Part shown: piece after piece, positions 5,672 to 60,740 of the stretch | Layout of the letters: every line of letters starts with the position of its first letter | How positions within the stretch are numbered: position 1 is the first letter of the stretch | DNA from: a virus | Taxonomy: Duplodnaviria > Caudoviricetes | DNA: 64,000 nucleotides | IMG/VR virus record: IMGVR_UViG_3300025011_000016 | Direction: 5' to 3' (one strand) | The notes under the pieces: generated by a model | Database searches by the model: none | Seen by the model: the letters and a program-made list of their open reading frames with translations, nothing else | Told to the model about the DNA's origin: nothing | Translations under genes and position numbers: made by a program

Positions 5672-6442
5672 ATGGAAAGGTGGTATTATATGTTATATAA
5701 TAGACATAACTACTTAAATAAGAATATTGAATTTCTAGTATCTAATGAGATAATTGAATATGATATGCAATCGGCAGGTTTCAATATATTAAAGTATTAT
5801 AAATTAGTTAGTGATGATAAATTAAATTTTTTAGAATCTCTTGGTAAGAAAGAAAGACATGTTCAAATCGGATTGTATCAAAGGGCTGATAAAGTATTAG
5901 CTAGACAACTTAATGACAAATTTATTGAAACACGTAAATGGTTCTTTGAACAAAATGAGTTAATTGATGAAGATATTTTATCTATAAAGAAAGATGCAGT
6001 CATTACTTTCAAACGATGTTTAGTAACAGAACTAGATAATATTAAGTTTATTGAAAAGAATATATATACATCATATTACTATTTAAATAAATTGGAATTT
6101 TATTATAACAATAATGTCATTCATGTCAAAGGTATTAATGATGATTTGTTGAAATTACATTCAGAGTATATGCTAGACTTTTTACATATGTTTTTTCGAA
6201 TGAATGAAACTATTAAGGTTAAAAAGATCATTGAGTATTTAAAAGAGTTTTCACATTATTATAAAAATAGACATCTTGAAATTGGTTATTATAGAGAGTT
6301 GAATAAACAATCATTATTTAAATTAAATGATAGTCTATTTAATTCCCCATTAGGAATACGTGATATTGGTGACGTTGGTGAGATAAATATAGATTATAAT
6401 TATCTAAATTATCTTATTCCTTTGATCGGCATATTAATTTAA
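5672..6442 (+). CDS. small family-B DNA polymerase palm-like protein
   Basis: EYDMQSAGF (motif A-like) and LSIKKDAV (motif C-like). Confidence 0.45.
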   Translation: MERWYYMLYNRHNYLNKNIEFLVSNEIIEYDMQSAGFNILKYYKLVSDDKLNFLESLGKKERHVQIGLYQRADKVLARQLNDKFIETRKWFFEQNELIDEDILSIKKDAVITFKRCLVTELDNIKFIEKNIYTSYYYLNKLEFYYNNNVIHVKGINDDLLKLHSEYMLDFLHMFFRMNETIKVKKIIEYLKEFSHYYKNRHLEIGYYRELNKQSLFKLNDSLFNSPLGIRDIGDVGEINIDYNYLNYLIPLIGILI

Positions 6443-12830: not shown

Positions 12831-15800
12831 ATGAGCCAACCCACAGGAGTGAAATTAGTTAAATTAGATTGGAATAAGGAGTGTGAAAAAGATTTTATAA
12901 CTGGTAAAGGTTTTGAAATTACTGAAGTTGCTTTTAAGAAAAAGGATGAGAAAACCTTTAAAGGGAAACCTGATGATTCAAATGGTAAGAAAGAAAAATC
13001 ATATAATGGTATGCACTCAAGTAGATACGCTTCGGATTAATTATTAGTCCCTTCATGTAGTAATACATGTTGTAAACTCTCTTAATTGCGGGGATCTCCT
13101 TAGAGCTTAAACTACTTATATAGTAATAACGTTTAAGATTGTATGATCCGCATCCAAAATTCTATTAAATAGATATGGTTCAACGACTAGAGAAATCTCG
13201 TAAATATAATTGTTATATTGAAATAGAGAGCAACCTAATTAATTAGGTTGATGATATAGTCTTGTATCCTAATTAACATTAGGGAAGTTCATTTGAGAAC
13301 TGTATAGAGTTACAATCTATATGAAAGTATCGTGGGGGGATGAAGATGCATTTGCAGAAAGATATTCCTGTAAATGTAAAGATTTAAAAGGTAGAGTTTA
13401 CGAAGATGAAATATGTAAAATGTGTGGTACTAAAGTAGTTTTTAAAGATGTTGATATGAAAATCACAGGATGGATAAAACTACAACATCATGAAATTATT
13501 CATCCGATATTCTATAAGATGATTAAATCTATTATAGGTGATAAAGTATTTAATGAGATAATTGAATATGATAAGGACATAACTAGAGAAGGAATTGCTT
13601 TAAGTAAAGAGGGTAAGAATCCATTTAAAGGTATTGGTTTGATTGAATTCAGAGAACGTTTCGATGAAATCTTGTTTTATTATAAAGATAAGAAAAAGAA
13701 TAAGATTGACTTAGTTAATGAAGTATTAGCTGAAAGAGAAAAAGTATTTACATTTTGTTTACCAGTTTATTCTTCTGTTTTAAGACCAGTATCATTTAAA
13801 GGTGAAAGTTATTACTATAACTTTATTGATAGAAAGTATAATGCCATATTTTCATTATCACGATTATTAAATACTAAAGGTCCAATGCCTAATGTTAATG
13901 GCATGAAAGTTAAAACAAGTAAGATGGATGAACCAACTATATTACAATCAATGCAAAAGAAAGTTATTGATCTATGGCAATTAATCTTCTCTGAAATTAA
14001 TCAGAAGTCGGGCCACATAAAGGATGGAGTTTGTCCCATCGTAGAGTGATTTACGTTGAAAACTATTTTTAATTGCGGGAATATTCTTAGAACTTCTTTA
14101 TGGAAGATTGGGCAATCCGCATCCAAGTCTCTTTTATATAAGAGAAAGGTTCAACGACTATCCTTTAGTGTTGAAATACACAATAGGAGTAGGGCCTAAG
14201 TAGGTGGGTGAGATTCCCTTAAATCGAAATAAAATGCATCTCGTTGGAGATGATGATATAGTCTGAACTTCTATTGAAAGATAGAGAGAGGTGAAATTCC
14301 TTTGCATTATTTTACAAATAATGTCTACGACTGCAAATTCTCGGTGGTAGGATCAACTTTAGTTCAAGAAATGTAATTATACCGGACCCACAACTAAAAT
14401 CCGATGAAATAAGATTAGGGTATCTTGCTTTTCTAGAGCTATTTAAATATGAAATAATTGCTCATGTCGTTAAGATGAATGATATTTCTGAAAATGAAGC
14501 ATATGAGCAATGGTTTAAAGCAAGTATCAACTATAACAAGAAGATTTATGAAGTGATGATGTACCTAGTTAAGAAAAGAAAACCACGAGTGATCATAAAC
14601 CGAAACCCTAAATAATGTGGGGCGTTATAGAGTGATCTATAAGAGTAAACTATTTTAATTGACGGGAAACTCCTTAGGGCTTCGTAAATGAAGATTGGAC
14701 AATCCGCAGCCAAGTCTCTTATATAAGAGAAAGGTTCAACGACTATCCTTTAGTGTTGAAATACACAATAGGAGTAGGGCCTAAGTAGGTGGGTGAGATT
14801 CCCTTAAATCGAAATGAAAGCATCTTTATAAGATGAAGATATAGTCTTATATCCTAATGAAAGTTAGGGAAGTTCATAAGAGAACTGAGCTACGTTACGT
14901 GTATCTCGAACTCGGGACAATTAATTACGGATCTGAACTCTTAATGAAGATAGTTGATATTAAAAATGAATATAAAGATGATTATACTATGAGTTTACCT
15001 ATTCAAATATTACGAGTACTAAACGCGGATTTGTAACAAAGTCCGGTTATAATAGTAATATTATAACGAGTTCCATGTGAACGCCTAACAAGCGGTGTGA
15101 GAGATATATTATGCTCTTGCTAACGGTAGAAGCGAAATATGCAGAATAAGCTTCGTAAGAGAATCTACGGTCCTGAAATATGGATAGCGTGACAATACCG
15201 TGCCAAGTTCCTATTAATTGTAAGTTCGCAAACAATCTACAAACAGTTAGGATGGTGAAATATCTTGCGTATACTGATTAAACCATATGGGGTAGTTTAT
15301 ATAATGAGAAATTTAATAGATACTAAGGTATATATCGGACAGACTGTAAATCTTGAGAGGCGAAAAAATGAACATAAAAACCGTAAATCCTCATCCAGTA
15401 AGAGATATAATTTTCATATTACTAAAGTTATAGAAGAATATGGATATGAAAATTTTGAATTTAAAGTTTTAGATGAAGCGTTTTCTAAAAAAGACTTAGA
15501 CGATAAAGAGAAATATTTTATATCCTTATTTAAATCCAATGATCCTAAATATGGATATAATTCAAGAGGAGGTAATTTACAAGAACCATTAAATCAGAGA
15601 ACTAAAGATTTAATGTCTAGTTCTCATATAGGCTTGACTGAAACTGCCATAACTAAAAGAAAAAAGTCTCATAAAATTTTAGCATTTAAAGATAATGTAT
15701 GTCTAATTGTGGATAGTGGTAAATTATTTGGTGATATGATTGGAAAAGATAGAAATAATGTAACAAATGCTTTACGAAAGGGAATAAAAATAAAAGGTTA

Positions 15801-16515
15801 CTATGTATTTTATCTAAGTAGTAAAAAACGTGAAGAAGTAATTAAGAAATCTGATGATTGGGCTTATTGCGAACTAAGCCGATTAATAGGAAACGGTGTA
15901 GAGGCCATCGAGCAATCGTATGTTATAGATTATATAACATATGATTGAGTAGAGTACTGGTCGGTTTGCGGGCCGATTGGGAAGCGCATGGCTCCAATAC
16001 TATAGATATATAATATTGGATGAAGATATGGTCCACCCCTATATGAAAATATAGGATGTGGTGTTCGACGGCCAATGTATATGACCGGTGATTCTTTAAT
16101 TGACGGGAATATCCTTAAAGCTTAGACTACTAATGTAATAATGTTTAAGATTGGACAATCCGCAGCCAAGTCTCTTATATAAGAGAAAGGTTCAACGACT
16201 AGAGTGAGAACTCGTAGATACTTTATGTATTGAAATGGGAAACCGATAGATTAAATCTATCGAAGATATAGTCTATTATCCTAATGAGTATTAGGGAAGT
16301 TCATAAGAGAACTGTATAGATTTATAATCTATATGAATATAAAGGATATATTGAATATTATTTCACTGAAGACTAAGAAACTAATTAAAGCTTATGATAA
16401 GACATTTAATCCGAGAAAGAATATGTTCATTTCTAGAAATGATGGATTATTTAATGATGATTTCAATCTACTAAAAGATCAACTTATTGGTCTATATGAG
16501 TTTAACAATATTTAA
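12831..16515 (+). CDS. rpoC: RNA polymerase beta'-like catalytic subunit (N-terminal part); 6 exons 12831-13037, 13333-14025, 14334-14609, 14917-15030, 16064-16072, 16345-16515, about 489 aa
   Basis: Spliced product restores the Zn-binding CKC..C..C, GHIKD|QILGGRINF, NRNP|TIN and NAD|FDG|DILN (NADFDGD); AGGAGG before ATG 12831. Confidence 0.9.
13038..13332 (+). ncRNA. group I intron (ORF-less, 295 nt)
   Basis: P1 GGAU/GUCC; P/Q/R/S elements; 3' G at 13332; joins ASD|WGD in frame. Confidence 0.9.
14026..14333 (+). ncRNA. group I intron (ORF-less, 308 nt)
   Basis: P1 GGAU/GUCC; P/Q/R/S; joins HIKD|QILGGR. Confidence 0.88.
14610..14916 (+). ncRNA. group I intron (ORF-less, 307 nt)
   Basis: P1 CCCU/GGGG; P/Q/R/S; joins NRNP|TINY. 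Confidence 0.9.
15031..16063 (+). mobile_element. group I intron (1033 nt, divergent core) carrying a GIY-YIG homing endonuclease
   Basis: P1 CGGAU/GUCCG; P4 ACGGU/ACCGU; S GAAGAUAUGGUC; ends ...GUGGUG just before TTC GAC GGC. Confidence 0.85.
15265..15948 (+). CDS. intron-encoded GIY-YIG homing endonuclease
   Basis: VVYIMRN....VYIGQT, conserved R and E, GYN motif; lies between the Q and R elements of the intron. Confidence 0.88.
   Translation: MRILIKPYGVVYIMRNLIDTKVYIGQTVNLERRKNEHKNRKSSSSKRYNFHITKVIEEYGYENFEFKVLDEAFSKKDLDDKEKYFISLFKSNDPKYGYNSRGGNLQEPLNQRTKDLMSSSHIGLTETAITKRKKSHKILAFKDNVCLIVDSGKLFGDMIGKDRNNVTNALRKGIKIKGYYVFYLSSKKREEVIKKSDDWAYCELSRLIGNGVEAIEQSYVIDYITYD
16073..16344 (+). ncRNA. 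group I intron (ORF-less, 272 nt) with an apparent C at the 5' splice site
   Basis: P/Q/R/S elements; removal joins FDG|DILN; P1 CGGC/ACCG. Confidence 0.82.
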
Positions 16516-41792: not shown

Positions 41793-44615
41793 ATGAAAAT
41801 TGTACCTAATAAACAACAAAAGAAAGCTGTTATTGAATCAGTGAAATGGTTAAAGAGTGGTTATAAACAAGTCTTTGAAATATCAGGTCCTCCAGGATCA
41901 GGTAAAACCTTTATAGTTTATTTAATACGAAAGGCAATGAAGCTAAATCCCTTGGATGTTCTATTTATGGCATATGTAGGAAAAGCTACAATGGCTTTGA
42001 CATTACAAGGTAATAATGCAAAGACAATGCATAGTTCTATTTATGATAGGGTTGATTTACCTAAGATGGATGAGAATGGTAAGTTTATTTTAAAAAATGG
42101 TAGAATACTTACAACTCCTGGTTTTGTTAAGAAAAAATCTTTACCTGATAATATAAAACTTATAGTGGTGGACGAAGGTTCTATGATTAATGAAAAATAC
42201 GCTTTAGATATTTTAAGCTTCAAGTTACCAGTTTTAGTGCTCGGGGACTTAAATCAGCTTTTTCCTATCTTTGGGAAACCTTATTTCTTAAGACAACCTG
42301 ATATTATATTAACAGAAATTATGAGACAGGCTAAAGATGATCCTATTATTCATTTAAGTCAAAAGGCAATTAATGGTGAAATTATTGAGATAGGAAAATA
42401 TGGTGATAGATGTTTTGTTATTAATAAAGAAGATATCACAGACAATATGCTTACAAAAACAGATATCGTTATTTGTGGTAAAAATAAGACACGGGATCAT
42501 ATAAATAAATATGTTAGAGAAGAAATATATAAAATAGACAAGCCTTATCCAGTAAAAGGTGAGAAATTAATATGTAGACAAAATAATTGGGATATGTCTG
42601 TCGATGAAGGTAAAATATTCTTAGTTAATGGTCTTGTAGGTTACGTTGAAGAAACACATTTAGACACTTATAATAAAAGATCTTTATGTATTGATTTTAG
42701 GCCTGAGTTTTTAAAAGAAACTTGTTTTGAAAGAGTAGCAATTGATTCTTTTATGAGTCACGTTGCATAGTAATATGCAATTGCAACTACTTTAATTGCG
42801 GGAAACTCCTTAGAACTTTATCTACTAATGTAACATGATAAAGATTGGACAATCTGCAGCCAATGATCTATTCATAATAGATTTAGGTCCAACGACTAGA
42901 ATGGGAAAGTTCGTAGGGCTCAAGTGAGTGGGTGAGACTCCCTTAAATCGAAATGGGTGGCCCCATTATAATAATTAGTATAATGGGTGAAGATATAGTC
43001 TGTGCTTTAAGGAAACTTAGAGAATAACTAACCGTAAGTCTTAATAACTATTCTGTATATAATTATATTATACAGTTAACAAATAATATAAGAACGGGGG
43101 TGATATAAAATGATTAAGACTTTTAAAACAAGAATACGACCGAATAAAGAACAAGAGGTATATTTAAATAAGTGCTTTGGGTATAGAAGGTTTATATATA
43201 ATAATGCGTTAGAATACTTTAATACTCTTTTAAAATATAATAATAATGTTATTGATAAGGATTTAAAGAAGTTCTTTGATAAATTTGATTATATTACTCA
43301 TATATATTCTAAGAAAGAAAAGGGACCGGGATTTGAATGGACTAAAGAATATAATAAGTCCATAAAGAATGAAGTGGCTAGTGATGTTAACTTAGCTGTT
43401 AATAGATTTTTTAAAGATATTAAAAATAAGAAGCGTTGTAAACTGCATTTTAAAAGAAAGGTTCATGGAAATGGATCGTTTAGAATATATAGTAAGCATA
43501 AAACTAATGTTATGATTCTTGATATGAAATTATTCTCTTTTATTATTAATAGAGAATTTGGTCATATGTCATTAAAAACATATGAGGACATAAGTTTCTT
43601 ATATCATCATGATATAAAAACAATGACTATTAGTATGAAGAATTTTAAATATTATGTCTCATTTACTTATGAAATAGATGTTCCAAAGCATAAGCATGAG
43701 AAAGATACCATAGGTATAGATTTAGGGATACATAATCCGGTAGTTTGTTTTGATGGAAAAGATATCATAAATCCTAAATTTCCGAAAGGAATTATTAAGA
43801 AACTAGAGAAGAGAGCCGATAAATTTTCAACGATAGTTTCTAAGAAGAAATATGATAAATGTAATCCATCAAAGAACTATATAAAAGCGAGAACCAAGCT
43901 TAATTATATTCATGGTAAGATAGTGAATATTAGAATGGATTATATTCAGAAGGTTTCAACCTTCTTAACTAAGACTTATAGAAATATCGTAGTTGATGAA
44001 TTTAGTTTTAAAGAATTACTAACAGAGTCTGATGGTATTAAACGTATTAATAGAGGTATACATAGAGTAGGTGCCTTTACGTTTATGCAAGTGTTAAAAT
44101 ATAAATGTCACTTTTACGGCAGTGAATATATTTTAGCCGAACCTAATAGTACCATTACATGCTCTGAATGTAATCATAAACTTAAAACTAAGTTGAAGTT
44201 ATCCCAAAGAGTCTTTAATTGTCCTGATTGTGGATATATAGATGATAGGGATAATAATGCGGCTATTAATATTTATAAGTCATATAAGAATCTTTATTAA
44301 CTAACGTAAATAGAGATTTCGCCGTTGGTCGGACGGTTTAAAGAACCTTGACGGTTAAGTTATTGTGGTATCTAACGAATACTACTAACACGACAGTATA
44401 AGCATTTATTTACACCATATGAACAGAGAGATAATAAACGTAGCTATTATAATAAATTTGAATTTGCCAACGCAATAAGCGTTCATTTATCACAAGGATC
44501 ACAATATAATACAGTTTTAATATATAATGAAAGAATGGGAGATAAAGAGTATTATAAGAAATGGTTATATACAGCAATATCGAGAGCGGTATCCGGATTA
44601 GTATTGGCCGTTTAA
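41793..44615 (+). CDS. RecD/Dda-like SF1B helicase; exons 41793-42746 and 44397-44615, about 390 aa
   Basis: GPPGSGKT, VVDEGSMI, LGDLNQL, LTEIMRQ; exon 2 supplies FANAISVHLSQGSQY and LYTAISRA. Confidence 0.9.
43110..44300 (+). CDS. tnpB: TnpB RNA-guided endonuclease (IS605 OrfB family)
   Basis: N-terminal KTFKTRIRPNKEQ HTH; RuvC GIDLG, VVDEF, DRDNNAAINI; CSEC...CPDC Zn finger. Confidence 0.93.
   Translation: MIKTFKTRIRPNKEQEVYLNKCFGYRRFIYNNALEYFNTLLKYNNNVIDKDLKKFFDKFDYITHIYSKKEKGPGFEWTKEYNKSIKNEVASDVNLAVNRFFKDIKNKKRCKLHFKRKVHGNGSFRIYSKHKTNVMILDMKLFSFIINREFGHMSLKTYEDISFLYHHDIKTMTISMKNFKYYVSFTYEIDVPKHKHEKDTIGIDLGIHNPVVCFDGKDIINPKFPKGIIKKLEKRADKFSTIVSKKKYDKCNPSKNYIKARTKLNYIHGKIVNIRMDYIQKVSTFLTKTYRNIVVDEFSFKELLTESDGIKRINRGIHRVGAFTFMQVLKYKCHFYGSEYILAEPNSTITCSECNHKLKTKLKLSQRVFNCPDCGYIDDRDNNAAINIYKSYKNLY
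44300..44396 (+). ncRNA. putative omegaRNA scaffold / IS605 right end (5' limit uncertain, may extend into tnpB)
   Basis: Nearly identical block at 56285-56381; hairpins GCCGUU/GACGGU and GUGGUAU/AUACUAC. Confidence 0.65.
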
Positions 44616-45898: not shown

Positions 45899-48800
45899 AT
45901 GGCTAAATTTACAGATGATCAAATAGAACACATAGAAAGTGACATAGAGAAGATTCAGACTAAGCCTAAATATAATTGGGCTATTATATAGTGATATATA
46001 ATATAAACTTTTTTAATTGACGGAAACTTCCTTAGAGTCTAAACTACTAAATTGATATTTTAGTATATTGATGGCTGAGTGTAATTAACTCAGGTATAGT
46101 AATAATGTTTAGGATTGGATAATCCGCATCCAAGTCTCTTATAATAAGAGAAAGGTTCAACGACTAAATGTAGAGCTCAAGTGAGTGGGTGGAAATCCCT
46201 TAAATCGAAATGGAAAGCATCTTTAATAAAAGATGATGATATAGTCTTATATCCTAATGAAAATTAGGGAAGTTCATAATAGAACTGCACAGCTCAGCAA
46301 ACTGTGTGAAATAATGAATATGTACGTCAGCTATTTAGCACACCTAGGCGCATTACATTTATCTAAAGAGGTAATAAATAATTCTATAGATGAATGTATT
46401 AATCAAAATTCACCAGCTAACGAAATTAATATATATTTAGATGAAGGTGAGAATACTTTACTAGTTGCTGATAATGGTAGAGGAATAGCTTTCGATAAAA
46501 TGGAAATTGTGTGCACTAAATTACAAGCAGGTAGTAAGTTTACCAGAGAGGGTAGTGGTGGAGCTTCTGCTGGAGAAAACGGGTGTGGCATTACGGCCGT
46601 GAATTCGCTGTCGGAACACTTTGAGATAATCTCAACTCGTTATGGTGAAAGGGCTATAATTGAATTTGAATCTGGTAAGTTGGTCAGGTCACCAGTAATT
46701 AAAAAAATCGGTGATAAAACTAAACACGGTACTACAGTAAAATTTAAACCCAATCCATTTTACATGGGTGACGATTGTGATATCCCAACAGATTTATTGA
46801 TTGAATGGATTGAAAAAATAGTTTATTTAATGCCATCAAATATAGAAATATCACTAAGTGTCTCCAGAAAAGGTAAAGAATCTGCAATAAATAAAAAGTA
46901 TCGTAATAAAAATGGTTTAAAGGACTATATTTTGAAATTGTGTAAAAAGCCTATTTTAGATCCAATTCATTTTATGAAATCTTTAAAAATTAAAGAATTT
47001 GATAAAGGTAGAGAGATCGAAAGATTCATTGGATTAGAAACAGCTTTTACTTACAATTCAAATAGTATGGAACCTATTATTGAATCATTTTGTAATTTTG
47101 TGGTCACTGTTGAAGGGGGTATTCACAACGATGCTGTTAAACAAGGTGTTGTCCAATTCTTAGTTAGGAAAACTAAGGAGGGTTTATCTGATAAAGAATC
47201 GAAAAATATTGATATACTACCTATAGACGCTACTCAAGGATTAGTGTTGACATTATACTTAAGTACCGATATGAATATGATGTTTGCATCACAAACGAAA
47301 GAAAAACTTTCTAATAATGCTTTCTTCAAACCACTCAGAAACATGACATTTAATTCATTGGATGAATACTTTAAAAAAGAAGTTAATGATTTAAAGAAGA
47401 TAACAAGTTTTATTAAGACTAATGCTAAAGCAAGAATTGAATCAAACAAAGCTAGAAATGCTGTTATTAAAGGTGAAACTACTTCATTCGAAGAACACAA
47501 AATGAAGAATTTCTCTCCTGCAAATAATTTAGGGAATGATTACAGAGAGTTATTTGTTATAGAAGGTAAATTAGATTGCCTTATTTTCTTTAATTGACGG
47601 GAAACTCCTTAGAACTTCTTAATTGAAGATTGGACAATCCGCAGCCAAGTCTCTTTATATAAGAGAAAGGTTCAACGACTAGAGTATGTAAGCTCGTAGG
47701 TTTATTTATAATCCGAAATGGGAAAACAATAGATTTATTCTATTGAAGAGATAGTCTAATATCCTAATTAACATTAGGGAAGTTCATAAGAGAACTGTAT
47801 AGAGTTATAATCTATATGAATGATTGGATTCAGCAAAGGGTAGTGCAAGGTTAGGTAGGGATACGGATACTCAGGCATTATTTGCAATGCGAGGAGTTCC
47901 ACTTAATAGTTTTAATCTAAAGTTAGATAAAGTTTTATTGAATGATGAATTTAGGGATTTAACTAAAGTATTAAAATGTAATATCGGTGAACGATTTGAT
48001 ATTACAAAACTAAATTATAAAAAAATAATCATACTTACGGATGCGGATTAATTCATAGTCCCATTATGTAGTGATATATAATGTAAACTTCTTTAATTGA
48101 CGGGAAACTCCTTAGAACTTCTTAATTGAAGATTGGACAATCCGCAGCCAAGTCTCTTTATATAAGAGAAAGGTCCAACGACTAATAGTAGGGCTCAAGT
48201 GAGTGGGGTAATAACACCCTTTAAATCGAAAATAGAGGCATCTTTTATAAGATGATGATATAGTCTACACTTTATTGAAAGATAAAGAAAGATAGCATCT
48301 TTACATTATCTAACGAATAATGTTAATATGAATGGATTGATGGTTTGAGAATAGCCTCACTAATTTGTGTATTCTTCTTATGTCATATGCCAGAGATAAT
48401 TAAGCAAGGATATTTATATAAATCAGTATCACCACTATATTTATTAAATGATACTAAGGGTCATTTTATTATTGATAAAAAAGAGTATGTATCAGTTTTT
48501 GAAAAAGCTGTTAGAAATAACATTAAAGTTATTGATCCAGAAACTAATATTGTTTATACTAATAATGAGATGAAAGAGTTACTATTAAAGAATAGGGGAT
48601 ATTTAGAGGAGTTATACCGAGTTAGTAATCATTTTGCAGTTAATCCTTTTATCATTGAATACATCACCATATATGGGGATCAATCAAATTTCATAAATAA
48701 AATGAAAAAGAAATTCCCTGAGTTAACACTTGATGAAGAAAATGTTTTATCTGGTATATATGAAGGAAAATATCAGATTATTATATTGGATAAAATATTC

Positions 48801-49900: not shown

Positions 49901-52303
49901 ATGATGTCAGTAAATGATCGGAAACTGAATAATCAGGTTTATGATAAAAATATAGTGATTGGAAATATTGGTGATATATGCACTGGATATATGAAGATAT
50001 TTGGTGCAAATAATAATTTAATGCGCCACATCCCAATAATCGCGGACGGTTTGAAGCCCGGAGAACGACGTATTTTATATACAATGTCAGAAGTTATGGG
50101 TATTACACATAAGGGTAAACATAAGAAGTGTATGGGAATTGTGGGACGTACGGCTGATATACACCCTCACGGCGACCAGGCCTTATACAGCACATTAGTT
50201 AAACTAGCGCAGAAATGGCAAAATACAATTTGTCTGATTGATGGATCTGGAAATTTCGGTAGTCCGACTGGAGAAACTGAGGCTAGTATGCGATATACGG
50301 AGGCCCGTTTGAGTTTTTATTCATATAAATGTTTCTTTGAAGAATTTAACCCAAATATAGTAGATATGAAATTATCATATAATGGAGAAATATATGAGCC
50401 TGAATTCTTACCATCTAAATACCCAAATGTTTTAATTAATCAAGCATTTGGGATTGGATACGGTTTATCTAGCTCCATTCCAACATATAATTTCAAAGAA
50501 GTTATTGATTTAACAATTAAATTAATGAATGATCCTGATTATGGAGATATTGTTTTAATACCTGATAGTCCTTCAGGTTCTCATATTATTGATGATGGTC
50601 AGTTTGAGACTATATCGAAAACTGGTAAAGGTAAATTTAAAATGAGGGGAACAATTGAGATTGATAGTGAAAATAATATAGTAACCATTACTTCAGTACC
50701 TCTATATGTAAATAGTGATGATGTAAAAGCCGATATAATTGATTTATTCAAGGAAAATAAGATGCAGGGATTGAAGAAAATCGATGACCAATCTTCTGAA
50801 AGAAATGGTACTAAAGTAATATTTTATTTAAAAAAGGAAGTCGATCCCGTTTCGATTATGCATAGTATCTACACTAAGACTAATATGGAAAAGACTTATC
50901 CGATAAATTTTAAACTCATAGATGACTATCAAGATGTTGATTATAATATACGATCCCTTTTGTTAACTTGGCTAGACCAACGGAGAGAAGTTAAACGCCG
51001 TCTATTTAATCATACTCTCATCAAAGCGAAAGAAAGACAACATGTTTTAACCATTCTATTATTCATATTAAACAAAGATAATGCTGAGAAAACTATGAGT
51101 ATCGTTAAGAAGTCTGAAAATAAAAAAGAGATTATTAAGAAATTAATGAATTCATATGGCATTACATCATTACAGGCGGATACTATTGCCGAAATGAAAT
51201 TAACTGCATTTTCTAAAGAATCACTCAATAGATATATAAAAGAGAAAGTTGATATTGATGAGAAGGTTACTAAATATGAAAAACTTGTGCGTTCCATTAA
51301 GAAAATTGATAAAATTATTAAAGAAGAATTAGAAGAAGGAATTAAACTATTCGGTGAGCCAAGACGGAGTAAGATTATTAACATTGATGGTGAGGTTAAA
51401 ATTCGAGATACTAATCATTTAGTTTCATTTACATTAAATGGATTTGTTAAGAAATTACCTGAAGGATGTACATCTATTGGTTTCATTAATCAGAATGATT
51501 ATCCTATAGAGATTATTGAGATAAGGAATACAACAGATTTATTGATCTTTGATGAAAGTGGAAAAATATCTAAGCTTCCTGTTCATTTATTACAAAACAG
51601 TGAATTAACAGGAGAAGGTGAAAAGCTAAGTAAATATTGTAATATTAATGGTAGTATAAAAACTATAATACCAAAACCTACTACTGAGATATTATCTCAA
51701 GTTAAAATACCAATATATTTCTTAATGATAACTACCAATGGTATTATTAAGAAGACTTTAGCAAATTCATATACTAATATCAAAAATGATTTAATAGGTC
51801 TTATTGTTAAAGATGGCGATACATTAAGATCGGTTAAGCTATTGGCTGGAGACAAAGACGTGGTTATTTATACTAATAAAGGATTCGGTGTCAGACTTAA
51901 ATCTGATGACATTAAAACTACAAGTAGAATGTCTATTGGTATTAAAGCTTTAGAATTAGGTCCTAATGAGATAGTTATTGGTATGGATCTTGTTAATGAA
52001 AAGGATAAATACTTATTTGCATTAACTAATCATGGCACGGGTAAGAAATGTTTACTTAGTGCATTTAAAACTATGGACAGAAATAGTAAGCCCTTAAGAA
52101 TTATATCATTAGAGACTAATGAAGAGGTCATATTTATAAAAACTGTTAAAGGTAATGAAAATTTCAAAGCTTATATGAAAAATAAGATCGAAACTATAAA
52201 TATTGAAGAAGTATTTGAGTTGCCACGCTTATCAAAGGGTAAGAAGATACTGGGTGTACTCAAAGGAGATACTATAATTGACATCAAAGAAGTAACTAAG
52301 TAA
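49901..52303 (+). CDS. gyrA: type IIA topoisomerase A subunit (GyrA/ParC)
   Basis: DGLKPGERR, HPHGD, GSGNFG, SMRYTEARL; beta-pinwheel C-terminal repeats. Confidence 0.92.
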   Translation: MMSVNDRKLNNQVYDKNIVIGNIGDICTGYMKIFGANNNLMRHIPIIADGLKPGERRILYTMSEVMGITHKGKHKKCMGIVGRTADIHPHGDQALYSTLVKLAQKWQNTICLIDGSGNFGSPTGETEASMRYTEARLSFYSYKCFFEEFNPNIVDMKLSYNGEIYEPEFLPSKYPNVLINQAFGIGYGLSSSIPTYNFKEVIDLTIKLMNDPDYGDIVLIPDSPSGSHIIDDGQFETISKTGKGKFKMRGTIEIDSENNIVTITSVPLYVNSDDVKADIIDLFKENKMQGLKKIDDQSSERNGTKVIFYLKKEVDPVSIMHSIYTKTNMEKTYPINFKLIDDYQDVDYNIRSLLLTWLDQRREVKRRLFNHTLIKAKERQHVLTILLFILNKDNAEKTMSIVKKSENKKEIIKKLMNSYGITSLQADTIAEMKLTAFSKESLNRYIKEKVDIDEKVTKYEKLVRSIKKIDKIIKEELEEGIKLFGEPRRSKIINIDGEVKIRDTNHLVSFTLNGFVKKLPEGCTSIGFINQNDYPIEIIEIRNTTDLLIFDESGKISKLPVHLLQNSELTGEGEKLSKYCNINGSIKTIIPKPTTEILSQVKIPIYFLMITTNGIIKKTLANSYTNIKNDLIGLIVKDGDTLRSVKLLAGDKDVVIYTNKGFGVRLKSDDIKTTSRMSIGIKALELGPNEIVIGMDLVNEKDKYLFALTNHGTGKKCLLSAFKTMDRNSKPLRIISLETNEEVIFIKTVKGNENFKAYMKNKIETINIEEVFELPRLSKGKKILGVLKGDTIIDIKEVTK

Positions 52304-55506: not shown

Positions 55507-55790
55507 AGATGATACGAATATGATTTAAATCATATTCGTATCATCTTTATCTTCCTCTATATAGACATCTTCACATTTTAAACCTCTAATTAACATACTC
55601 TCAAATATATCATCGGGAATTTCATTTACCAAGTATTTATTATATGAGTTGAGTTTACAACCGGCTTCTACATCTTTGACACCTATGAATTAGTTCATTC
55701 ATTAACATATCAGCTCCTTTATTTATATGTAAACACTTTTTTATAGTATAATGAAAACATTTTATTAATTGAGACATTATAAAGGAGGAT

Positions 55791-56381
55791 TCATATTGAG
55801 TCTCGTTGCATAGTAATATGTAATTGTAACTACTTTAATTGCGGGAAACTCCTTAGTGCTTAAAACACTTTTAAAGTAACAAAGTTTAAGATTGGACAAT
55901 CCGCAGCCAAAGTTATTATTTAATAACGAGGCTCAACGACTATCCCAATGGTACTAAAATGTACATTAGGAGTAGGGCTCAAGTGAGTGGGTGAGATTCC
56001 CTTAAATCGAAAAGGGTAGCCCCATTATTATAATGGGTGAAGATATAGTCTGTGCTTTAAGGAGACTTAGAGATATAACTTAACCGTAAGTAAGTCTTAA
56101 TAATTCATTCTTAATAAGATATTATTATAGTTATAACAAATAATATAAGAAGGGGGTGACGATAAATGTTTAAAACTTTTAAATACATCTGACTAAAAAA
56201 GCTATGTATTGACACGAAACTTATAAATAATGGCGATAACCAAGCCTATTAATAATATTTATAAGTTGTAAAAATCTTTATTAACTAGCGTAAATAGAGA
56301 TTTCGCCGTTGGTCGGACGGTTTAAAGAACCTTGACGGTTAAGTTATAAGTGGTATCTAACTAATACTACTAACACGACAG
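55791..56381 (+). mobile_element. non-autonomous IStron-like group I intron (591 nt, tnpB deleted) between the SD and start codon
   Basis: 5' end, core and 3' end are homologous to 42747-44396; residual tnpB ends (ATGTTTAAAACTTTTAAA ... AATATTTATAAG...AATCTTTATTAA). Confidence 0.88.
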
Positions 56382-56385
56382 GAAT

Positions 56386-58063
56386 ATGTCTATTACTAAA
56401 CAGGCTAGAAAACAAATGGAATTATTAATTTATTCAGTATTTACAGCTTTAGATCCAACTGGTTCTAATACTGCTAAATATAAAGAATTATTTGGTAAAA
56501 TGAATGATACTCAATTTGATAAATTCTTCAAAGATTTCTTTAAAGAGGAAGATGAGTATCTTATATTAGACGTTATTGATTATGAGTTAAATCTTCAAAT
56601 GGAAGATGTAGAAAGAGCTGCAAAGATTCTTGATGTACCTTTATTCGAAAAAGTTGCAATGCCATTTATTAACAACAATACAGAAAATCCTGTTGTTACT
56701 CAATATGAAGTTCCGGTTGGTTACATTAACTTGAAACGGGTTCAACAAATATTAGCTAAAAAAAATACTACATCTACAGAAATATCAACACGTTCTGCTA
56801 TAACAGGACAAGTTGTTGGTAAGGATAAAAATGCCAGAGATTCAGATCAGGAGAATTTTGCTCTTGTCACTTTAAATGCTACGAACACATTACGTGAGCT
56901 TTTGGGTTATGTTGCTTAGCCCCTATATACGGTAACGTATATAGCAAACTTCTTTAATTGCAGGAAATTCCTTAGAGCTTATTATATGAAGATTGGATAA
57001 TCTGCATCATATTTTCTAATGATTAAAATATTTTCTTACTAATAAATATACAATATTTTAAAGGATGTGAATTATAAAAATGTATATAGTCATTCGTAAA
57101 GATAGAGAAATATTTAAACTTGTAACATATCCTAAAGTCAAACCTGATACTTATGAAGTTAGTAATTATGGTAATATTAGAAATTTAAAAACTGGCAAAT
57201 TAGTAAAATTATTTCCCGATACAAAAGGTTATCCTTTTGCAAATCTTATGTATAAAAAATCCATTGCTCGTAGTGTTAATATCCATAGGTTGGTAGCGTG
57301 GGAATTTGTAGATGGATATGATATAGATCGAGGGAGAACTAATGTTAATCATCTGGACAGCGATCCTACTAATAATTATTATGAAAACCTTGAATGGGTT
57401 ACAACTAAAGAAAATAATCAACATGGTATTAAACATGGTAAGATTAGATTTGGTGCAGGTGGTAGTCTAAATTATAAAGCTAGATATAATGAAGAATTTT
57501 GTTCGTAAACTATGTCCATACATTGAAAAAGGACTCACTCAAATGGAAATAATGCATATTTACGGTTATAAAACAAGAAAAGAAAATAAAAGTTTATATT
57601 CTTTAATAGATGGAATTTACTGGGGTGTGTGGAGAGAGGTATCAAAAGAATTTAATATTAATATAAAACAAGAAAAATGTTCAACGACTATCCTTTAGAT
57701 GTGAAATTCATCATTAGGAGTAGGGCCTAAGTAGGTGGGTGAGACTCCCTTAAATCGAAATAAGAAGCATCTTATATAAGATGATGATATAGTCTTGTAT
57801 CCTATATAACTATAGGGAAGTTCATAAGAGAACTGCATAGATTAACGAACTATGTGAAAGTATCGCCCAGGAGTGATGACCTTGTGATGAAAAATCAAAT
57901 GTATGCTAGTATAGCTCAAAAAGGATATGTATCACTAGATGAACTACCGAACGATGTTGCCAATAAAACAACGCTGAATACAATTGATGTGCATCTTATT
58001 GGCTTAGGTATTAAAAGCGATTTAATCACTCAAGGATTATTAGTTAGAAAGACTATGAAATAA
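56386..58063 (+). CDS. rpoB: RNA polymerase beta-like C-terminal subunit; exons 56386-56907 and 57866-58063, about 239 aa
   Basis: VPVGYINLKRVQQ, TGQVVG, TLRELLG|PRSDD match the bacterial beta C-terminus (VGYMY.LKL, TLQEMLTVKSDD). Confidence 0.82.
56908..57865 (+). mobile_element. group I intron (958 nt) carrying an HNH homing endonuclease gene
   Basis: P1 GGGU/GCCC; P/Q before and R/S after the ORF; 3' G at 57865. Confidence 0.9.
57080..57698 (+). pseudogene. NUMOD4-HNH homing endonuclease, frameshifted near 57497-57500
   Basis: YEVSNYGNIR, IHRLVA..F, VNHLD....NN...NLEW; the C-terminal part continues in another frame after a TTTT run. Confidence 0.75.
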
Positions 58064-59594: not shown

Positions 59595-60740
59595 GTGATA
59601 ATATTGCTAAAGTTATGTATTATTGGATTGGGTAATTGTGGTAATCAAATCGCTGAATTAGCAAAGAAAGAGAAGAATATTCCGGGTATCGCTATTAATA
59701 GTTCTGAAAAAGATCTTACTACTATCAATACTGTTGATAAGATCCTAATAGGCGATATGATGGGTAGTGGTAAAGATCGGAATGAAGCTAAACGCTTCAT
59801 AACTCAAAATATTCAGTTGATACTTCAACAAGAAGTATTTAAAAAGCTGATAGAAGAAAGTAACGTGATATTCATAGCTTCTTCTACTAGTGGCGGAACT
59901 GGCTCTGGTATGACACCGATCTTAACTGAAATACTTACGAAAATTTACCATGGGAAAAGATTCGTTGTCATTCATGTTTATCCGGCAATTAGTGAGTCTG
60001 TTGCGGCTCAACAAAACTCACTGGACTATTTAAAAGAGTTGAGACAATTTATTCCCAATATTACCTATATGGCTTATGATAATCATCGTAGGTCAAATGA
60101 GCCGACTGACAGAATGATGACTGAAATCAACATGCAAGTGGTTAATGACATTTGTGTGATCCGTGGAGATTATCAATACTCAACTCAATATAGTTCAATT
60201 GATGAAAAGGATATGCTTAAGTTAATTGAAACTCCAGGCCGGTTGTTGATAACAACTGTAAATGGTTTAAAGGAAAAAGATCTTGATGAAAAATCTGTTG
60301 AGGATATCTTAATATTTGATATCAAGAACACTTCAGTAGCAGTGGAAATTGAGCGTGACCGACTTATAAAAAGAATAGGTCTGATCACGAACTTAAATGA
60401 TAAAATCCATAAAGCATTCAATACTAAGTTAATTATCTTCAAAGAATTTATCGGTGAGCCGGTAGAAGGATTCGAACATATCCATATCAATAAAGGCCCA
60501 GATGAATCTAATCAAATTATTGTAATAATGTCTGGCTTATCAGTTCCAGACGATCGTATTCAGAAAATGATTCAAAGGATTGAAGAAGTTCGATCGGAGT
60601 TAATGAAAGTTCAAGGATCATCTATCCTCGATTCCATAAAAACCGAGGATATTGATATATTACGAGAAAACTCTGGACGGTTTGATCCAGAGAGTCAAAT
60701 TAACCTGACTGACGTTATGGCAAAATATCTTAAGCGTTAA
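59595..60740 (+). CDS. tubulin/FtsZ-family GTPase (PhuZ/TubZ-like)
   Basis: IGLGNCGNQIA, GSGKD, STSGGTGSG signature. Confidence 0.9.
   Translation: MIILLKLCIIGLGNCGNQIAELAKKEKNIPGIAINSSEKDLTTINTVDKILIGDMMGSGKDRNEAKRFITQNIQLILQQEVFKKLIEESNVIFIASSTSGGTGSGMTPILTEILTKIYHGKRFVVIHVYPAISESVAAQQNSLDYLKELRQFIPNITYMAYDNHRRSNEPTDRMMTEINMQVVNDICVIRGDYQYSTQYSSIDEKDMLKLIETPGRLLITTVNGLKEKDLDEKSVEDILIFDIKNTSVAVEIERDRLIKRIGLITNLNDKIHKAFNTKLIIFKEFIGEPVEGFEHIHINKGPDESNQIIVIMSGLSVPDDRIQKMIQRIEEVRSELMKVQGSSILDSIKTEDIDILRENSGRFDPESQINLTDVMAKYLKR

Follow-up and report, generated by a model that had tools for sequence, protein, structure and literature searches.

The window analyzed here is a 64,000-nt stretch of phage DNA from a 100-kb contig with a GC content of 29%. 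On its plus strand, positions 55791 to 56381 hold a 591-nt group I intron (E2) from which a tnpB gene has been deleted and which runs through an omegaRNA right end to the omegaG at 56381. Sequence comparison and Rfam identify it as a complete, tnpB-less IStron-like element. An earlier note on this DNA had placed the feature at 56160 to 56400, which is only the 3' part of the larger element; the start lies at 55791, with a complete group I core. The ribozyme core (55791 to 56072, plus strand) comprises P1, P10, P7 (55938-55942 with 56046-56050), and P9, and it matches the full Rfam model RF00028 at 86.3 bits, with P3 to P7, P9, and the terminal G present. It is closely related to the core of E1 (42747 to 44396, plus strand), a tnpB-bearing sibling in a helicase gene.

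Downstream of the core, a 13-bp long-range stem (56075-56087 with 56335-56347, plus strand; pair probabilities of about 1.0) closes the loop that holds tnpB in the siblings. Such a gene within a loop closed by inverted repeats, with a shared 3' end, is the IStron layout; E2 keeps only the stumps of the gene. The earlier note described these as the first codons and the last ~40 nt of tnpB. The 5' part of this description was borne out. Comparison with the siblings revealed a retained promoter-like stretch with AACA, a Shine-Dalgarno (SD) sequence, and an 8-codon mini-ORF (56135 to 56192, plus strand), of which the SD and mini-ORF (56152-56192; ORF 56166-56192) match the first six tnpB codons. 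This 5' stump is the same as in the siblings at 24 to 25 of 26 to 27 nt. The AACA spacing is 7 nt versus 6 nt in AR9, and a sigma-70 promoter scan gave matches at chance level. The 3' remnant is longer than described, at about 80 nt (56200-56283), and is frameshifted and decayed, with 55 to 65% identity to the siblings. It folds as a 12-bp hairpin of -11.5 kcal/mol, versus -3.0 to -9.1 kcal/mol in the tnpB-bearing copies. This refolded, stronger hairpin (56219 to 56266, plus strand) is common to a second orphan copy, E7, and is the probable 5' part of the omegaRNA.

The deleted form of E2 was present in 10 of the 10 assemblies examined, with eight identical over the overlap, one carrying a single substitution, and one being a probable chimera. 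Assembly L018, in which the left flank and first ~110 nt of E5 are joined to the E2 body, was treated as a probable assembly chimera and is possibly a recombinant.

The host gene follows directly. Its exon 1 (56386 to 56907, plus strand) encodes a phiKZ/AR9-type RNA polymerase beta C-terminal subunit that matches proteins of AR9, PBS1, and phiR1-37 annotated as RNA polymerase beta subunit; the protein has ~240 amino acids in intron-less relatives. The 5' exon end (55782 to 55790, plus strand) contains the SD of this gene and the insertion flank AGGAT (55786-55790), a candidate TAM. Because the homologues start at the same methionine, E2 sits between the SD and the start codon, which have an ordinary SD-AUG arrangement in an intron-less relative. 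The SD:anti-SD energy is -13.8 kcal/mol when spliced, with the SD six bases before the AUG, versus -4.3 kcal/mol when unspliced. Since E2 parts the SD from the AUG, splicing would be needed for efficient translation.

The intron fits its exons closely. The P1 guide GUCU of E2 pairs with exon GGAU, forming the splice-site U-G pair on the 5' side and a G-U wobble at -4, and P1 covaries with the flank in five of five introns. Its P10 pairs the P1 loop with its own exon 2 over 6 bp, covering the AUG, and only 1.9% of random 9-mers were as good; the cognate intron/exon pairs ranked 5 of 120 permutations. Removal of the introns yields open reading frames in the siblings and restores the SD spacing in E2. 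We infer from sequence that the splicing of E2 is very likely under selection. A second intron of the same RNA polymerase gene (56908-57860) carries a NUMOD4-HNH endonuclease ORF (57080-57508).

The right end and its sibling copies

The right end of E2 had been called almost unchanged relative to that of E1, and the alignment agrees: 56284-56381 and 44300-44396 differ by three substitutions and one indel over 98 columns (94 matching), and blastn gave 93% identity over 134 nt (E = 1e-52). The scaffold (56273 to 56381, plus strand) is predicted to fold, after the 5' hairpin, into SL1 (56273-56302), SL2 (56305-56321, loop GGUCG), SL3, and SL4 (56350-56370), and it overlaps the tnpB 3' end at the right end of the element, as in TnpB omegaRNAs. 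The SL2 loop is complementary to CGAC (56376-56379), directly before the final AG, and this partner overlaps the likely intron P9.0. The pseudoknot (-5 to -3, with a non-canonical G paired with -2A) has the ISDra2 geometry (PMC10097598). By folding, every omegaRNA hairpin and the 3'-end pseudoknot are kept in E2. The pseudoknot is invariant in seven of seven right ends, so there is no covariation inside the phage's own family; in a parallel family, carried by the Staphylococcus phages Machias and LY01, the loop pairs with the end in the same way, and one copy shows two compensatory changes. An intact omegaRNA-type scaffold at the right end of E2 is supported by these comparisons. No Rfam model matched the right end. 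A search of the 100-kb contig with a model built from the seven right ends added no copy, and the only other matches to this model were weak and lay near distant tnpB genes.

All copies are alike as far as GACAG and diverge sharply beyond it, so that the guide would begin at 56382, as proposed earlier. With a length of 16 nt taken from ISDra2, the predicted guide is the 3' flank at 56382 to 56397 (plus strand), which includes the host start codon (56386). A self-target search of the DNA examined found no GAT-plus-guide site for E2, the best candidate having five mismatches. The guide of another copy, E6, resembles 50540-50555 in gyrA, after CTGAT, with two mismatches, one of them at the first position, which is near chance level.

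The earlier note envisaged one TnpB, from 43110, serving two guides. Both counts were too low. Protein look-ups revealed five TnpB paralogues, with 83 to 88% identity to the TnpB from 43110, on one ~272-kb groundwater contig of an AR9-like phage; one other, an intact-looking gene 83.5% identical, lies on the same 100-kb contig beyond the window. At least seven right ends give at least seven guides. The tnpB of E1 (43110 to 44300, plus strand) encodes 396 amino acids, with D204, D381, and a C4 zinc finger intact and D296 at the RuvC-II position. E3 (in a ligase gene; flank TAGAT), E4 (flank ATGAT), and E5 (flank TAGAT) also bear tnpB, and E6 (L009:1380-2788) keeps tnpB and the right end, with the ribozyme core lost. 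E7 (L029:2415-2607, 193 nt) is a second gene-less copy; it has no ribozyme, follows CTGAT, and interrupts a small ORF that is restored on its removal. The remnant hairpins of E2 and E7 match at 47 of 50 positions, compared with 31 to 38 of 50 for the tnpB-bearing copies. Because E2 and E7 share this derived tnpB remnant, the gene-less right end is present at two unrelated sites.

None of the elements contains tnpA, and the 100-kb contig gave no match to it above the cut-off; a weak Y1 transposase match at 5672-6442 fell below the cut-off and was treated as spurious. Viral contigs searched with the TnpB protein, the right-end motif, and the core motif yielded no close relatives, and JGI metagenome contigs yielded only E6 again and one chance match in GC-rich DNA. 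An exact search for the empty-allele pattern gave eight matches, none in the RNA polymerase subunit gene, and a literature search found no report of this element family. On sequence comparison, E2 is best explained as a non-autonomous element of an AR9-like jumbo phage, belonging to an IStron-like family that lacks a transposase and combines a group I intron, tnpB, and an omegaRNA.

Conservation of the scaffold

Between E2 and E1, SL1 to SL3 are identical at 58 of 59 positions, compared with 28 of 54 in the adjacent tnpB remnant, 213 of 298 in the core, and 52 of 74 at tnpB fourfold sites (p = 1e-5 or lower for the excess in SL1 to SL3). Overall, identity ranges from 71 to 82% for the intron core and from 62 to 77% at the fourfold sites of the tnpB paralogues. 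When E2 was compared with E3, its nearest core sibling, the excess conservation was marginal (p = 0.048). It is just the tnpB segment overlapping the omegaRNA that the deletion in E2 has left in place, and E7 keeps the same ~190 nt as E2 without any ribozyme.

Conservation of this kind may result from selection or from exchange among copies. Within SL1 to SL3, E2 carries E1-type variants and E7 carries E5-type variants, with derived bases common to both on either side. Such a mosaic is typical of gene conversion, a process able to maintain the scaffold even in the absence of selection; the pattern points to conversion rather than selection, and gene conversion among the copies probably helps to keep the scaffold intact.

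E2 might be a passive relic in which splicing alone is selected, the 5' hairpins are tidy self-contained folds refreshed by recombination with the five siblings, and the guide has no use. We regard this as a possible but rather unlikely explanation. The strong need for splicing, seen in the SD-AUG separation and the site-adapted P10, is in its favor, as is the mosaic of diagnostic sites in both the right end and the core. Because the 13-bp stem closes the loop, the 3' half of the right end (loop-closing stem, SL4, and P9.0) is also intron structure, with SL1 to SL3 and the 5' hairpin inside the loop. Resident introns without tnpB (48307-48331 in the window; L007:6210-6520) carry the same 3' tail as the element. 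Since this tail also occurs in introns without an omegaRNA, the final ~30 nt of the right end come from the intron family of the phage itself. Neutral template switching can produce hairpin perfection, and ORF-less BcISt1 copies are inherited vertically.

A passive relic accounts less readily for the sharp onset of conservation at SL1 and for the intact pseudoknot loop. The 5' hairpins, lying in the loop of the long-range stem, are not obviously needed for splicing alone. The ORF-less BcISt1 copies retained only the stem, not the full scaffold, and E7 has the scaffold but no ribozyme. In CboIStron, splicing does not require the upstream hairpins and is repressed by them (bioRxiv 10.1101/2023.11.20.567912, PMC13521648), so loss of the scaffold should be favored at E2. 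They have been kept at a site that must splice, which suggests that the E2 hairpins are retained for some use.

One conceivable use is as a domesticated switch, with TnpB binding blocking E2 splicing to tune translation of the RNA polymerase subunit and the scaffold being kept for this role. The position between SD and AUG would suit a switch. The pseudoknot and the likely P9.0 share bases, in line with the published splice-versus-guide conflict of IStrons, in which the same 3' bases take part in both structures. TnpB supplied in trans also repressed mini-IStron splicing in single assays. However, in a later library study splicing showed no effect of TnpB at the population level (PMC13521648). 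Relatives that lack the intron express the gene, the site is an ordinary GAT, and E7 has no such role. We therefore consider a switch very improbable.

Flanking motifs and the TnpB proteins

Use of the E2 scaffold as a guide RNA would depend on which flanks the TnpBs can read. As noted previously, the 5' flank of E2 is AGGAT and not TTGAT, which precedes E1 (42742-42746). The six known flanks (TTGAT, AGGAT, TAGAT, ATGAT, TAGAT, and CTGAT) have only GAT in common; given the terminal T, GAT in six of six flanks has a chance of about 1e-6, and positions -4 and -5 resemble background. In ISDra2, K76 reads -3G, Q80 reads -2A, F77 and T123 contact -4T, and N124 contacts -5T (PMC10097598). In an ungapped helix alignment, K76 corresponds to an invariant K83, Q80 to N/D87, and F77 to S/T/N84. 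T123 and N124 align to a loop that is variable among the five TnpBs, with the -4 and -5 contacts lost or variable.

The relaxed NNGAT TAM put forward in the earlier note agrees with the six flanks and the protein alignment, and NNGAT fits as the predicted TAM of the paralogues. On the other hand, G at -4 occurs in no tnpB-bearing copy, only in the gene-less E2. The introns share the P1 guide GUC, with a fourth base that tracks the flank, being A for TGAT and U for AGAT or GGAT. As GAT is the complement of GUC, a TAM and a constraint on splicing or insertion would leave the same flanks. The two copies that follow TAGAT have the same TAM-contacting loop, an identity that copy-specific TAMs would explain as well.

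Four other introns following GGAT had been cited in favor of a relaxed TAM. Three of them are clear (5' splice sites at 13038, 14026, and 48049), and the fourth (~16021) is only possible. These introns have their own GUCC guide sequence and none has the right end, so they have no bearing on the TAM. At 15900-16060, an upstream ORF ends at 15948, and GGAT is followed at ~16021 by a second P1-like hairpin, possibly representing nested introns.

All five tnpB ORFs are intact, with D204, D381, and the four-cysteine zinc finger. The RuvC-II position is Asp in five of five phage TnpBs, versus Glu in 115 of 116 homologues; the motif is swapped from Glu-Asp to Asp-Glu (D296/E297, strand end) in all five. 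With Asp in every paralogue, nuclease activity cannot be assumed. An AlphaFold model of TnpB (pLDDT 76) confirmed only the secondary structure and is unfit to judge the active site.

These features raise the alternative that the paralogues bind the E2 scaffold but leave AGGAT uncut, owing to 5-nt TAMs of their own or a weak Asp296 site, so that the RNA is a decoy or passenger. Variation among the five TnpBs is highest at residues 81-100 and 121-140, the TAM-contact regions, where the TAGAT pair shares its loop. Cleavage by GstTnpB is abolished by single TAM changes, and the flank of the parallel Staphylococcus family is fixed over 5 nt (CGGAT in four of four). The E-to-D change at RuvC-II points the same way. 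The same variation would nevertheless be expected from relaxed selection on residues that no longer read -4 and -5. Moreover, the five ORFs are intact and retain D204, D381, and the zinc finger, predictions often class altered RuvC-II sites as active, and flexible TAMs are known (PMC11043419). Overall, binding without cutting appears improbable.

The reading that we prefer, and to which we give about an even chance, is that E2 transcripts either splice or fold as an omegaRNA that is loaded by a sibling TnpB for homing in trans into intron-less alleles. An unspliced transcript, from the host promoter or the retained internal one, would fold the pseudoknot. The scaffold could plausibly be borrowed by any of the phage's five TnpB paralogues, with the 3' flank as guide. 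The intron-less allele (GAT plus guide) in a co-infecting phage would be cut by the complex and would receive a copy of E2 during repair. This scheme requires a TAM read mainly as GAT.

A broader version may be imagined, which we regard as a speculative outside chance. Five interchangeable TnpBs with a three-base (GAT) TAM and seven or more guides would form a shared homing network, in which selection keeps nuclease-less, transposase-less introns such as E2 for the guides that they donate. These introns would home in trans, entering co-infecting phages, and would have spread to new sites. The guide-or-splice choice of E2 would then gate translation of the RNA polymerase subunit.

If the E2 RNA is loaded, a phage intron would home on after loss of its nuclease gene by supplying the guide only, amounting to RNA-guided collaborative homing. 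A natural TnpB with a three-base TAM, if confirmed, would be a useful lead for a compact editor. The SD-AUG position makes E2 a simple reporter for the splice-versus-guide conflict.

Relation to known systems

ORF-less IStrons and IStrons in phages (of Clostridium botulinum) have been published (PMC4227781). Standalone omegaRNAs act in trans in other systems, as summarized in PMC10691335 with reference to Altae-Tran 2021. The advance is thus incremental unless a short TAM or homing in trans is demonstrated. What is new here is modest: an ORF-less intron that has its full scaffold, the occurrence of a derived gene-less form at two sites, the three-base flank, and the SD-AUG position.

E2 resembles the ORF-less or tnpA-less IStrons (CdISt1/CdiIStron, BcISt1 "no ORF," and CboIStron) in being a group I intron with a TnpB omegaRNA as its 3' end. 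It shares with IStrons the looping out of ORFs by an inverted-repeat stem, the pseudoknot over the 3' splice site, and the loss of ORFs. Unlike IStrons, the E2 family has no tnpA or remnant of it in the elements, ends in ACAG rather than TCAG or CGG, and follows NNGAT rather than a fixed pentanucleotide. Assignment to IStron group A (target TTGAT, ATTAT, or TTTAT; end TCAG) was rejected since the flanks share only GAT and the end is ACAG, and assignment to group B (insertion after GG; end CGG) was rejected since every flank has a final T and every element ends in ACAG. In contrast to the ORF-less IStrons, E2 keeps the full scaffold, has its derived form at two unrelated sites, and belongs to a jumbo phage, where it lies between SD and AUG.

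The cultured Staphylococcus jumbo phages Machias and LY01 (MW349128.1 and OR836606.1; L039, L040, L129, L130, and L131) carry the parallel tnpB family, annotated only as transposases or hypothetical proteins. Their TnpB is 32% identical, with a different scaffold mostly ending in GACAG, and in four elements the left end is of the intron type. Neither the Machias nor the LY01 genome yielded a Y1 transposase. An ORF-less LY01 intron (L132; OR836606.1, ~59900-60200) shares the 3' end of the LY01 tnpB elements and in part resembles their right ends. This family offers a tractable test system.

PATEs are gene-less elements with an omegaRNA and an effector elsewhere in the genome (PMC10055086). Like these and the standalone omegaRNAs of IS200/IS605, E2 is gene-less, encodes an omegaRNA, and needs its effector from elsewhere in the genome. 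Unlike PATEs, its scaffold lies inside an intron of the self-splicing type, no TnpA-type end hairpins were identified, and the phage has five TnpB paralogues. The proteins resemble ISDra2 TnpB (PMC10097598) in the D191/D361 equivalents, the zinc finger, the K76 equivalent, the pseudoknot geometry, and the GAT core. They differ in having ~30% identity, Asp at the E278 position, no conservation of F77 or the T123/N124 region, and an unrelated scaffold sequence.

Finally, E2 recalls the homing of phage group I introns, collaborative homing included (reviewed in PMC13565253), in that an intron residing in an essential phage gene could spread by means of a nuclease encoded elsewhere. In collaborative homing that nuclease is a free-standing endonuclease; here it would be guided by RNA, with the intron itself as the source of the guide.
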